From NCBI GenBank assembly GCA_963640325.1, contig CAVHXY010000007.1, forward strand, positions 29,668 through 93,667: DNA of 64,000 bases, given 5' to 3'. A program made the translations under genes and the position numbers. Within the stretch, counting starts at the first letter, position 1. Each line of letters begins with the position of its first letter. Positions 22,276-64,000 of this stretch are shown here, piece after piece. The notes under the pieces were generated by a model. That model was not told where the DNA came from, ran no database searches, and worked only from the letters and a program-made list of their open reading frames with translations. This DNA is from Tidjanibacter sp. (lineage in GTDB: Bacteria; Bacteroidota; Bacteroidia; Bacteroidales; Rikenellaceae).

Positions 22276-22350
22276 CGAGGTGTAGCGCAGTCCGGTTAGC
22301 GCACCTGCTTTGGGAGCAGGGGGTCCCGAGTTCGAATCTCGGTACCTCGA
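22276..22350 (+). tRNA. tRNA-Pro (TGG)
   Basis: Cloverleaf CGAGGTG..TACCTCG, anticodon loop TTTGGGA, T-loop GTTCGAATC; TATTTTTG promoter at 22251. Confidence 0.96.
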
Positions 22351-22520
22351 CAAACGGGGGCACCCCCACGCACCAAGCCACCTTTAACAGGTGTCTTGGT
22401 TTCATTATAACCATCCCCTAATAGCATAGACGCTGTGGTCTTACTAGTCCACCCGGGGATTTCCCGCTGTCGCATAATTTTATTACTTTTGCATCGGAAC
22501 AACCGTCAACAAGCAGCCAT

Positions 22521-24497: not shown

Positions 24498-24572
24498 CGG
24501 GATGTAGCACAGTCCGGTTAGCGCGCCAGCTTCGGGAGTTGGAGGTCGCTGGTTCGAATCCAGTCATCCCGA
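24498..24572 (+). tRNA. tRNA-Pro (CGG)
   Basis: CGGGATG..CATCCCG acceptor stem, anticodon loop TTCGGGA, T-loop GTTCGAATC. Confidence 0.95.
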
Positions 24573-24573
24573 C

Positions 24574-32989: not shown

Positions 32990-33216
32990 CGTTCCCTGCC
33001 CCGCCTGTTGAGGGGAACGAGAGCACGGACTATTACTTTTACAGTCTGGCGGCAATATACGAACGGTTCACGCCCGAACAGATAGGCTGTAAGGTTGAAC
33101 GCCTTTGGGCGGTGGGCGTGTCTGACGGAAAGGTTTACACCAACTCCAAAGTAACGATAAGCCGCCAAGAGATAATAAGGAAGAAACAACGACACCGCAA
33201 CGGGGTTACAGCGTAA
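32938..33216 (+). CDS. Phage-type hypothetical protein, probably N-truncated at the insertion junction
   Basis: YRVTF..DYYFYSLAAIYERFTPEQIGCKVERLW; lacks a convincing start and its 5' end overlaps the methyltransferase gene. Confidence 0.5.
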   Translation: MLRSFFCGSEKGRRYRVTFPAPPVEGNESTDYYFYSLAAIYERFTPEQIGCKVERLWAVGVSDGKVYTNSKVTISRQEIIRKKQRHRNGVTA

Positions 33217-33230
33217 GCGGAAAAAGTTAA

Positions 33231-33455
33231 TTATATGGTGCTCATAATGTCAAGACTTTCCTGCCAATCATTCGTCCAACGCAATTTACCGTCCTTGTAG
33301 AGAATGTATTGCGGAAAGCCGATAAAATGTGTTTCCCCGTCGGTAAAGATTGGCTCAATGACTTCGTATTCTTTCCACATTCCAACACGTTTCGCATCGT
33401 GATACCCGGCTTCTCTCGCCATTTTTTTCGCTTCAAGTAAAAATTTTTGCTTCAT
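33231..33455 (-). CDS. 74-aa protein, candidate immunity protein (copy 1)
   Basis: Directly downstream of the toxin-like ORF; 60/74 aa identical to 63019-63243. Confidence 0.75.
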   Translation of the reverse strand: MKQKFLLEAKKMAREAGYHDAKRVGMWKEYEVIEPIFTDGETHFIGFPQYILYKDGKLRWTNDWQESLDIMSTI

Positions 33456-33481
33456 ATTGTTGTATGTATTTATTTTGTTCG

Positions 33482-33489
33482 TAAATTTG
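33482..33489 (+). promoter_or_regulatory. Bacteroidota -7 promoter driving the candidate small RNA
   Basis: TAAATTTG, with TTG 19 bp upstream (33460-33462); the same element is conserved at 62986-62993 on the minus strand. Confidence 0.6.
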
Positions 33490-33495
33490 CGACAT

Positions 33496-33574
33496 ACAAG
33501 AAACCCTTGAGCGTAAGGGGGGATGTGAACCCCCAGTACTTAGATGTGCATCGTTCAAGGGTTTCTTGTTTTTA
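33496..33574 (+). ncRNA. Candidate structured small RNA, antisense to the toxin 3' end
   Basis: 18-bp outer stem (33496-33513 / 33552-33569) enclosing two hairpins, followed by a U-tract; G-U wobbles favour the + strand. Confidence 0.55.
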
Positions 33575-34922
33575 CCATACAATAGAATTGTTCCATGCCA
33601 TTATCCAATACTTCCAGCTTTACATTCCACGTTGTTCCGTTGTAATCGAATTTGTACAAATTATAGTGCGTCACATGTCGCTTGATTTTATTTTTTATGT
33701 TTTTCTGCGCACTTGGTTTTGTCATATCTTTTACTGCACCCATTTCGCTTCTTTCAACAAATTTCAAAACATTTGGGTTGTTCCACGCATATTCAGCAGC
33801 ATGAACTTCTTCTTTGCTGTATAAATGGTCAATAAGATTCTTCCGAGGTTCACCGCTCCTCTTCAATAAGCCTGTTTGTAAATTTTTGACTGTGGAAATT
33901 TCAGAAACCTTGAATCGTTCTCTATCACGGCGAAGTCCTTTTGTGGTTTCCAGCATTTTCTTATTAAAGCTGTTTACACTTCCTTCCGTTTTCTTCGTAA
34001 CATTCTTTATCCACCAAGCCTTTTGCTCTACGGTCATTACGGGTGTTGCCATAGTGCTACCCGCTTTCTTTACCACACCCTTAACAATAAGTGAATTAGG
34101 CTGCAAGTTATCAACACGGTAAGCCCGTATGCCTGCCTTGAAGTCAATGGCCGTTTTTTTGCCGATTCCTGCCCACGGCAAAATGTTCTTTGCCTCTATC
34201 CCCGTCTGTGGGTCATAAAATCGGCGTGTACCGTCTGCAAAGGTCTCCATCGTAATAATGTGGCCTTTCTCTTTTCCAGCCCATCTCCAACTTACATGAT
34301 ATCTGCCCTCCTGCGATGTTTGTGCCAAGAAGTCCCTCCACACGTCTCCCTCTGTCGTGTATGTGGCTCTGACATATCCCCGTCTATCTACGGTACGGCT
34401 CTTTACTGTCTGTCTGCAAACAATCGGAGTCGGTATATTTCCATTGGCATCCGTCCATGCCGCTCGAGTATTCCCACGGAGCAATGTTCCCACACCGTCC
34501 GCTGTTCGTCCAAAGGCTTCAACGGGAAGGCCTCGTCTGCGCAATTCGTAAGCCACAACAGTACTTTGACAATTCACGCGGTACTGTTCGTCCTCTTTGT
34601 AATGTGGATTCGGGTGCATCATGTCGGCTTGTTCGTGCGTCATAGGTGCGCCCACATCAACTCCAATAGCCTTTGCCAATTTGTCTATTTCTGTGACCGT
34701 TGTTTGTGTTGGTGCTGCTCCTTTGATTAGTCCTTTATTGTCACTCAAAAAGTAAGGCAATGACTTTGCACCCTCTATCCGCTTTTCATTGTTGGCTACC
34801 CATTCGCCAAAACGGGCAATGCCGCTGTCACTCCCCGAATAATCCCTGCCGATATAGTTCTTGCTCTCGCTCTCTTTTGTGGGTTCTTCGCCGTTCAATA
34901 TCCGTTCGGTGTCGGCTTTCAT
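33555..34922 (-). CDS. N-truncated MuF/phage minor-head-like polymorphic toxin: papain-fold (Tox-PL-like) domain plus probable C-terminal nuclease-like domain
   Basis: EMKADTERILNGEEP..WVANNEKRI..SLPYFLSDN resembles the post-MuF linker; NPHY..NCQSTVVAYELRRRG, GHII and FYDPQTG give a Cys/His/Asp triad; basic ~135-aa C-terminal domain. Confidence 0.7.
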   Translation of the reverse strand: MKADTERILNGEEPTKESESKNYIGRDYSGSDSGIARFGEWVANNEKRIEGAKSLPYFLSDNKGLIKGAAPTQTTVTEIDKLAKAIGVDVGAPMTHEQADMMHPNPHYKEDEQYRVNCQSTVVAYELRRRGLPVEAFGRTADGVGTLLRGNTRAAWTDANGNIPTPIVCRQTVKSRTVDRRGYVRATYTTEGDVWRDFLAQTSQEGRYHVSWRWAGKEKGHIITMETFADGTRRFYDPQTGIEAKNILPWAGIGKKTAIDFKAGIRAYRVDNLQPNSLIVKGVVKKAGSTMATPVMTVEQKAWWIKNVTKKTEGSVNSFNKKMLETTKGLRRDRERFKVSEISTVKNLQTGLLKRSGEPRKNLIDHLYSKEEVHAAEYAWNNPNVLKFVERSEMGAVKDMTKPSAQKNIKNKIKRHVTHYNLYKFDYNGTTWNVKLEVLDNGMEQFYCMVKTRNP

Positions 34923-35047
34923 CTCGGCCGGCAATTTTCCGCATGGGGAAAACAACAAAATAGTACATCTGTTTTTGCAAAAAAAACATTCTTTTTTAAA
35001 GCAATAAGGGGTATTTTTGCATTACAACTATTAACCGATTTCATACA

Positions 35048-62737: not shown

Positions 62738-62872
62738 TTCATGCTTCGGGTGTAGTTGTCACATATGCATATGACAACTCCGAACGGACAAAAATAAGCA
62801 AAATTAAGGATATTCGGAAACTGTTTTGTCGCACATGGGCAATCTTCAGCGGCTGCTGTCTAAGGTTTCTTA

Positions 62873-62980
62873 TAAAAACAAGGAGTGTCGTACCTACACT
62901 CCTTTATGTCCCCTTCGCTTAACATCTACCCAATCGGTACTGGCAGCTTCGCCCGCCGGGGACAAGGTGGTTGCGATAAC
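62873..62980 (-). ncRNA. Candidate structured small RNA (copy 2) with its own terminator
   Basis: Minus strand: TAAATTTG promoter (62986-62993); TGTCCCC..GGGGACA stem enclosing two hairpins with CCAGTAC..TAGATGT; terminator AAGGAGTGT-loop-ACACTCCTTGTTTTT. Confidence 0.5.
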
Positions 62981-63018
62981 CAATGCAAATTTACGAACAA
63001 AAAATAATCGACCAAAAT

Positions 63019-63243
63019 ATGAAGCAAACAATTTTACTTGAAGCGAAAAAAATGGTGAGAGAAGCCGGGTATCATGACGCAAGACGAATCGGCACGTGGA
63101 AAGGCTTTACAGTCATAGAGCCGATATTTACAGACGGGCAAGGCTACTTTATCGGCTTTCCGCAATACATTCTCTACAAGGACGGCAAATTGCGTTGGAC
63201 GAATGATTGGCAGGAAAGTCTTGACATTATGAACACCATGTAA
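63019..63243 (+). CDS. 74-aa protein, candidate orphan immunity protein (copy 2)
   Basis: 60/74 aa identical to 33231-33455; no toxin gene adjacent. Confidence 0.75.
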   Translation: MKQTILLEAKKMVREAGYHDARRIGTWKGFTVIEPIFTDGQGYFIGFPQYILYKDGKLRWTNDWQESLDIMNTM

Positions 63244-63272
63244 TTAACTTTCCTGCTTACACTGTTCCCCCG

Positions 63273-64000
63273 TTATAGTTTTCTGCTCAACTGCTCCATG
63301 AGGACCGCATACTCTTCGTCTGCAGCCGTCATGAATTCATACTCGGCCACATGACCATGTTCTGCCGACAGCCCATACTTCTCCAACAGAAATTTCACTC
63401 TCTCGGCTACGGCATGCGATGGATCGACGAGGTGTATATCCCTCCCCCCTATCACCTCCTTCATGCGTTCAGCCAGAAAGGGATAGTGTGTACACCCCAA
63501 CACAATCTCATCCGCCCCCGCATCAATAAGCGGCTGCAGGACTTTGCGCACCTGCGCCAATGCCTCCGGAGAATCAATCTTGGAATTCTCCACCAATTCC
63601 ACGAACTTTTCACCAACAGCTGAAATAATCTTCACCTTGTCACCATAGCGGGCCGATGTATTGTGAAACAGCTCTCCCTCCAAAGAGCTCTTGGTAGCCA
63701 GAATGCCTATCACCCCGCTCTTGCTCTGCAATGCGGCCGGTTTCACTGCCGGCTCCATGCCTACGAATGGGATGTCGTAGTGGCTGCGCAGGTACTCAAT
63801 TGCCACCGCTGTAGCCGTATTGCATGCCAACACAATGAGTTTCGCACCACGGTCAAGCAACTGTTTCACAGCATCCTCCACATATCCGCGCAACTCCTCA
63901 ATTGGCTTGCCTCCATAAGGACAGTTCTTGCCGTCACCGAAGAACACAATTGACTCCTCGGGCAACAACGCCTTCACTTCCCGCCATACCGACAAGCCAC
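63273..64000 (-). CDS. murI: Glutamate racemase (5' end outside window)
   Basis: CPYG, LACNTAT, GMEPAVKPA, VLGCTHYPFL. Confidence 0.95.
   Translation of the reverse strand, partial: GLSVWREVKALLPEESIVFFGDGKNCPYGGKPIEELRGYVEDAVKQLLDRGAKLIVLACNTATAVAIEYLRSHYDIPFVGMEPAVKPAALQSKSGVIGILATKSSLEGELFHNTSARYGDKVKIISAVGEKFVELVENSKIDSPEALAQVRKVLQPLIDAGADEIVLGCTHYPFLAERMKEVIGGRDIHLVDPSHAVAERVKFLLEKYGLSAEHGHVAEYEFMTAADEEYAVLMEQLSRKL

Follow-up and report, generated by a model that had tools for sequence, protein, structure and literature searches.

Between the core genes ftsK and murI (glutamate racemase), the 64,000 nt stretch of Tidjanibacter sp. DNA analysed here (the window) carries a phage-derived piece of 410 bases, which on balance is best explained as a captured, toxin-less pair of RNA antitoxin and immunity gene, kept as a protective module. 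It is very likely that the piece comes from the 3′ end of a phage MuF toxin locus and was inserted between murI and ftsK. Its RNA is probably the antitoxin of a missing CdiA-like nuclease, while retention of the cassette for protecting the host is a tentative reading whose chances fall a little short of even.

The murI–ftsK gap is 535 nt long here and at most 185 nt at all 29 loci of relatives compared (the top 29 among the 44 congeners in which murI had a match), and ftsK follows murI in every one of them, which supports the insertion implied in the preliminary description of this DNA. The GC content of the cassette is 44%, against 52–53% in the flanking genes. The family of the cassette ORF was found in none of 46 congeners by profile search and in none of 60 relatives by single query; the former result and the short gaps in the relatives reject a core gene at this position. 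An assembly artefact is unlikely, since a second NCBI contig (16,329 bp) encodes an identical protein, extended upstream by the same 12 residues. The right junction lies 2 nt into the murI stop codon, at the end of a phage-derived tail in common with the region near 33.5 kb (63244..63274, + strand, by alignment). On the other side, an ftsK-proximal leader with a hairpin and two −7 boxes at 62796 and 62806 (62738..62861, − strand, z −4.4) is longer by itself than the entire murI–ftsK gap of most relatives. Its −7 boxes would permit ftsK transcription in spite of the inserted terminator.

At its left edge the piece preserves the 3′ end of the lost toxin gene, a feature overlooked in the preliminary description. 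At 62862..62875 (+ strand), AA GGT TTC TTA TAA reads G-F-L-stop in the frame of related toxin tails (GFL-stop, 62864–62875). The C-termini of such tails (L022/L098, L099, L114 and P0188–P0200) are KGFL(S), KGFF(R/K) or, once, RGHF, followed by the RNA in the same register. The GFL-stop stands in register before the A-tract; the piece thus starts within the final codons of a toxin gene distinct from that near 33.5 kb. The best structural match of the modelled tail domain (pLDDT 88) is the CdiA-CT structure 4G6V (Foldseek E 2e-4; Z 11.2, rmsd 3.1, 120 aligned), with an identity of 18–20%. The PD-(D/E)XK active-site residues E77, D85, D98 and K100 are invariant in the tail family, and the CdiA_C profile gives a weak match to 8 of 14 members (best E 0.001). 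According to the available text of PMC9086364, 4G6V is a tRNA-Ala acceptor-stem nuclease, and the same fold also takes in DNases. By its modelled fold and its active-site motif, the lost toxin is a CdiA-like PD-(D/E)XK domain, for which tRNA cleavage is predicted. Neither the tail nuclease (HMM, six frames) nor the MuF N-terminal domain (PF04233) has a match in this genome, which is 84.7% complete, so the cognate toxin could lie in an unassembled part.

Convergent with the toxin remnant is a predicted structured RNA of ~110 nt (62873..62984, − strand), identified by fold, family alignment and covariation as the candidate antitoxin. It consists of a 5′ hairpin, a P1 stem, an internal loop (GCGAAG / AUGUUAAGC), a P2 stem and a terminator; the MFE is −39.7 kcal/mol (z −2.4), and the RNA family has no Rfam match at E ≤ 5. 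The conserved core, GCGAAGC ... GATGTTAAGC (62917..62952, − strand), includes the P2 helix, in which three of the four pairs are changed on both sides and 91.7% of cells are paired, a value reached by 8 of 500 shuffles; this covariation comes from four distinct sequences and a structure picked by the analyst. An intrinsic terminator (62873..62904, − strand) is formed by a 9 bp hairpin (62904–62880) and a U-tract. The scan found this one against 0.6 ± 0.8 in shuffles, which is weak taken alone, and a hairpin with U-tract occupies the equivalent site in L098, L099, L122, L114 and L161. Promoters of Bacteroidota carry TTTG at −33 and a spacing of 19–21. By consensus match, the RNA has a sigma-A type promoter of this phylum (62985..63016, − strand), with TTTG at 63016–63013, a 19 nt spacer and TAAATTTG(C) at 62993–62986. 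The full consensus, TTTG-N19-TAAATTTGC, occurs at 105 sites in the genome (0.055 per kb); the −7 consensus, in the available text of PMC12632263, is TANNTTTGY. A sigma-70 promoter scan does not cover the phylum of the host, for which promoter motifs and the organisms named for related loci suggest a Bacteroidales species. A full promoter and a terminator for the RNA, against no recognisable promoter for the ORF, make the RNA more likely than the protein gene to be active in the cassette.

Behind the same tail family, the core GCGAAG ... GAUGUUAAGC is found again in phages L098 and L114 and in the stand-alone chromosomal tail and RNA pairs L099 and L122, and it is kept although the tails share only 39–41% identity; at L114 the adjacency of tail and RNA is partly built in, as the search pattern contained tail codons. 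Ahead of the scaffold gene, L114 carries MuF, tail and RNA and lacks both the papain domain and the protein gene, leaving the RNA as the sole candidate antitoxin. No protein immunity gene was seen adjoining L099 or L122. A member of the RNA family is also present, without a toxin, in phage L161 (43.5 bits, E 4e-12); it has both promoter and terminator, was found by the motif alone and stood outside model building. The tail of L123 belongs to the same family (38%) but has a different RNA core. Of 52 viral matches to the core pattern, 11 adjoin this tail (a single lineage, that of L114) and one is the orphan L161; the other contexts, with one locus searched for each distinct context, score at most 14.5 bits. 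The RNA model has no match in 150 other genomes of the order. The core pattern in 401 genomes was dropped as support, because its two matches are equalled by two in the reversed control and the pattern had been derived from those same sequences.

Several further leads on the RNA were discarded. Mimicry of tRNA by sequence was rejected, the core showing no resemblance to any of 40 host tRNAs (longest match 9 nt). A motif common to the two RNAs of the window (ACATCTA/GTACTGG) has 11 viral matches, none adjoining a toxin or 74-aa gene, and was put down to chance. The CGCTTAACATC pattern gave 35 matches, the only genuine one being the already known L022 phage, and a 15 nt complement to the methyltransferase gene of the window is at about chance level (~0.4 expected, by the analyst's estimate). 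The window also holds two ordinary tRNA-Pro genes, at 22276–22351 (TGG) and 24498–24573 (CGG). The stand-alone chromosomal CdiA-like genes at L099:1385–2120, L122:1423–2155, L123 and L124 each have their own promoter and a convergent RNA, with no MuF or protein partner seen, and are candidates for new RNA-antitoxin TA modules. In L161:1736–2148, the RNA is followed by a small ORF 29% similar to the first ORF of an array on contig C16 (see below).

Relatives of the cassette ORF are found in phage head clusters, beside MuF genes whose products combine a Tox-PL1 domain of papain fold (PF15644) with a C-terminal tail of one of several kinds. Modules of the donor type, made up of the MuF N-terminus, a variable C-terminal toxin and an adjacent small ORF, are present in L001, L015, L022/L098 and L114, and the window holds only the 3′ remnant of one. 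Tail and ORF are separated by a spacer of ~100 nt, usually with an antisense TAnnTTTG-type box. Clustering of 23 loci gave five tail families, and the closest spacer came from the same family in all but L023 and L123 (21/23), although this agreement includes many related loci and linkage alone accounts for much of it among kin. The four spacers closest to that of the cassette all lie behind the CdiA-like tail family. The comparison shows the predicted RNA to be exchanged together with the variable tail, and the protein gene to stay with the papain domain. INPHARED phages and PLSDB gave no matches.

At six loci (L010, L021, L032, L034, L038 and L040), tails of LPD3 type are followed by antisense RNAs with an anticodon-arm-like hairpin and a 7 nt loop (TTGCAGT, TTGTAGT or CTGTAGT). 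In a second gut lineage (L033–L049), truncated MuF fragments lie in the chromosome at several places, among them the vicinity of galE and of a sugar transporter. Tails and matching RNAs swap between contigs there; the toxin parts are often frameshifted, and one is split by an insertion element.

The ORF at 63019..63243 (+ strand) encodes a 74-aa protein of no Pfam, PHROG or NCBIfam family, predicted from co-occurrence and a complex model to inhibit the Tox-PL1 domain of MuF toxins. Of 42 loci that encode a homolog, 29 also have the papain domain; this count includes duplicates and leaves out L017 and L018 (weak matches) and the loci of this genome. Among the remaining 13, twelve are truncated on the toxin side by the contig end, ten with the gene within ~620 nt of that end and two starting inside the toxin tail; the last is L037, a fragment in the chromosome whose tail is broken. 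The fold is predicted with confidence (pLDDT 91), and fold searches turned up no solved structure at Z ≥ 5 or E ≤ 0.001, which does not establish a new fold. Modelled with the papain domain from the region near 33.5 kb, the protein scores 0.75 (best of three controls, 0.00); 116 of 157 solved pairs attain the mark used for such scores, as do 2 of 215 mismatched ones, a rough comparison because it was made with the analyst's own alignments. At least 96% of contacts are shared between runs, the partner pLDDT is at least 87, and residues 43–48 sit on the invariant C43, H146 and Q164 of the papain domain; the signature of Tox-PL1, in the available text of PMC3482391, is NC-H-DxQ. The model supports a protein that would plug the papain active site, at the level of the family and not specifically for the cassette copy.

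No −7 box with one mismatch or fewer occurs on the + strand between 62738 and 63018, so that the 74-aa gene may be silent here; donor phages would express it as part of the MuF operon. The dN/dS between the two ORF copies of the window is 0.21, which may reflect selection in phages rather than in the host. In the second gut lineage, the gene has premature stops at 4 of the 16 loci read. The preliminary description had proposed immunity acquired against a phage-delivered toxin. A role in immunity is likely for the 74-aa protein; its retention for protection is weakened, and at most suggested, because the gene lacks a −7 box and carries premature stops in the other lineage.

The second copy of the ORF belongs to locus 1 (33231..34958, − strand), which by comparison consists of an N-truncated MuF tail, a Tox-PL1 domain, another C-terminal domain and the paralogous 74-aa gene, and is separately derived. 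Its neighbours are a methyltransferase and a sugar transporter: it is an MuF fragment between host genes rather than an intact phage locus, a point missed by the preliminary description. As a papain domain is present there, the 74-aa protein of the cassette is not strictly an orphan. Positions 33199–33490 and 62985–63274 form an inverted repeat with 85% identity over 294 nt (E 3e-88, far above chance), so the inverted similarity originally reported between 33.2–33.6 kb and 63 kb is real. It takes in the ORF (33231–33455 in locus 1; 60/74 aa and 191/222 nt, the 81% identity reported), the 18 nt GCAAATTTACGAACAAAA ahead of it and ~30 nt beyond its stop, and it overlaps the murI stop codon by 2 nt, where the repeat was said to end. 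No toxin ORF adjoins the cassette, again as described.

The same description regarded the RNA as a second copy of that of locus 1, which does not hold. The left ~110 nt has no useful alignment to locus 1, the fold differs, and the four closest spacers are all from loci with the other toxin tail, none being locus 1; the cassette as a duplicate of locus 1 is rejected on these grounds. The left-edge TAAAAACAAG is present in both loci but is poor evidence for shared descent, because it is an antisense U-tract in both and falls inside the last codons of the locus-1 toxin; between it and the 18-mer nothing useful aligns. The view that the host kept the protective parts of a related phage toxin locus stands as regards phage MuF-toxin origin and loss of the toxin, but the toxin variant is not that of locus 1. 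Locus 1 has its own antisense hairpin RNA (33492–33576, + strand, z −7.3), unlike that of the cassette. This RNA has a GGGGG-ATGTGAA-CCCCC arm; the related phages L001 and L015 have a similar layout with a different loop, which makes a reading as an anticodon arm insecure. As a single query, the locus-1 tail gave no viral relatives.

Further fragments of this kind are dispersed in the genome. The element at C5:34039–35448 (L219) has the same flanks as locus 1 (MuF tail 99%, 160 nt element 96%) and different toxin-like domains and small ORFs. Locus 1 and L219 each lie between host genes, and the pattern looks like cassette exchange via recombination at conserved ends. The 9-mer GCTGTCTAA at the left junction of the murI–ftsK cassette (62855–62863) is also found at C5:34000–34008, ~30 nt outside the C5 element, which may be chance. 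At C20:6170–6625, a broken papain-fold fragment is convergent with a broken small ORF. At C16:1–720 (L217), three small co-directional ORFs, one of them DUF7675 and one 47% identical to a C5 ORF, lie upstream of an integrase fragment. They resemble ORFs adjoining such MuF toxins and possibly form an array of orphan immunity genes. Contig C15 starts with the same 55 nt as C16.

In the favoured explanation, the donor MuF protein would have two toxic domains, the papain domain and the variable tail, and the host would have acquired the 3′ end of the locus by illegitimate recombination. The RNA would be transcribed constitutively from its intact promoter, perhaps also by read-through from murI, and would serve as a decoy that binds the tRNase-like domain once a phage delivers or makes the nuclease; the 74-aa gene may be silent in the host. 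The most serious alternative, though a somewhat unlikely one, is that the piece is neutral debris: a random stretch of phage DNA that illegitimate recombination or the decay of a prophage left behind, of no benefit to the host. Antitoxin-only scraps are to be expected from decay alone, because a toxin cannot outlast its antitoxin, and debris would suit a 74-aa gene without promoter, with broken relatives at C20 and in 4 of the 16 loci of the other lineage and with its family confined to one species of the genus; locus 1 and C5, moreover, keep intact toxin-domain frames that are superfluous for pure defence. A random fragment, however, would hardly run from the last codons of the toxin to ~30 nt past the immunity gene with RNA promoter, core, terminator and ORF all intact, and phage L161 likewise retains the RNA without a toxin. 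When 610 query ORFs from 31 loci were compared with the genome, the phage-derived matches were confined to MuF toxin/immunity regions, and the portal, scaffold and capsid genes of the donor phages had none.

It is improbable that the cassette is a backup antitoxin against toxins of the same cell, the protein acting on the locus-1 papain domain and the RNA on a tail nuclease in an unassembled prophage. The modelled complex with the locus-1 domain fits such a role, as do the incomplete assembly and the start of contigs C15 and C16 inside a related repeat; yet locus 1 already encodes a paralog of the protein, its toxin strand shows no consensus promoter, and both the tail nuclease and the MuF N-terminal domain are without a match in the genome. 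Slightly less probable still is an RNA that serves only as a cis element, limiting the toxin through antisense transcription or as a bidirectional terminator with no action in trans, in which case an orphan copy could not protect. The RNA invariably converges on the toxin gene and abuts it, and its terminator is strong, but it hardly overlaps the toxin mRNA. The internal-loop sequence is kept while the flanking helices covary, and the core changes with the tail family, which together indicate recognition by a protein; toxin-less copies, as in L161 and between murI and ftsK, also speak against action in cis only.

Capture of a protective module, the preferred reading, has partial parallels among known systems. 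In type III TA systems (ToxIN, CptIN, TenpIN, AbiQ) the antitoxin is a tandem-repeat RNA encoded ahead of the toxin gene in the same transcript. The present RNA is likewise structured and proposed to neutralise a nuclease directly, and on sequence grounds L099 and L122 would be stand-alone toxin and RNA pairs. It differs in being single, non-repeated, downstream and convergent, with its own promoter and no Rfam match, and the toxin is a CdiA-like PD-(D/E)XK domain instead of ToxN, CptN, TenpN or AbiQ. The CdiA-CT of 4G6V, structurally closest to the lost tail, differs in having a protein antagonist, CdiI, and in its export by type V secretion; for the phage domain tRNA would be a candidate substrate. 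Orphan immunity is known from proteins that counter toxins delivered by contact. In the available text of 10.1101/471110, the AID arrays of Bacteroidales are sets of co-directional protein-coding genes that counter T6SS effectors and are carried by mobile elements or placed behind a XerD-like recombinase. The cassette resembles AID and rAID systems as an immunity determinant without its cognate tail nuclease in an 84.7%-complete genome. It differs as one gene between murI and ftsK with no adjacent recombinase, with a GC content above the AID figure of ≤41% in that text, with relatives beside phage MuF genes instead of T6SS or contact-dependent effectors, with an RNA, and as a single phage-derived unit among several dispersed fragments. 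The cassette is thus like both AID orphan immunity and a type III antitoxin, yet misses defining features of each.

Closer to the donor are the MuF toxins of Bacteroidales prophages (Bxa family), which, in the available texts of PMC11699363, PMC3482391 and PMC5512222, combine a papain-fold glutamine deamidase with a downstream small ORF; the first of these has a small ORF modelled on the active site of a Bacteroides MuF glutamine deamidase toxin. The donor MuF shares the papain-fold domain and the downstream small ORF. The available text of PMC11699363 names protein immunity only, whereas here a tail-specific RNA is the candidate and sits toxin-less in a core-gene gap. Imm35 (PF15567) is a predicted Tox-PL1 inhibitor in the available text of PMC3482391 and the nearest named Atlas cluster to the 74-aa protein (0.75, a lead only). 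Both would be small alpha+beta proteins tied to Tox-PL1, here with inhibitor-like docking in the model and the 29/42 loci noted above, but PF15567 matches neither of the two copies and none of 143 relatives (E ≤ 0.01).

A literature search, covering mainly papers open without subscription and in part only their available text, gave no account of an RNA antitoxin that acts on a MuF or CdiA-like toxin, nor of a host that retains one toxin-less. If the proposed role is true, the RNA represents a new class of RNA antitoxin and accounts for MuF tails without an immunity protein. It would also offer a direct test of the role of MuF toxins in infection, as an RNA of ~110 nt should blunt a single phage toxin only. 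A broader and distinctly speculative view is that phages of Bacteroidales guard their MuF nucleases with tail-specific decoy RNAs, which hosts and rival phages steal, giving a dispersed and updatable archive of RNA antitoxins to virion-delivered toxins that acts as acquired anti-phage immunity.

The genome also carries five cassettes of a polyvalent-type phage protein: C2:62357–64261 (ART-PolyVal), C5:60.1–61.1 kb, C6:53.3–54.1 kb, C11:1–882 and C11:43.3–44.3 kb. These have conserved ends and variable middles, with an ORF of ~70 aa nested on the opposite strand.
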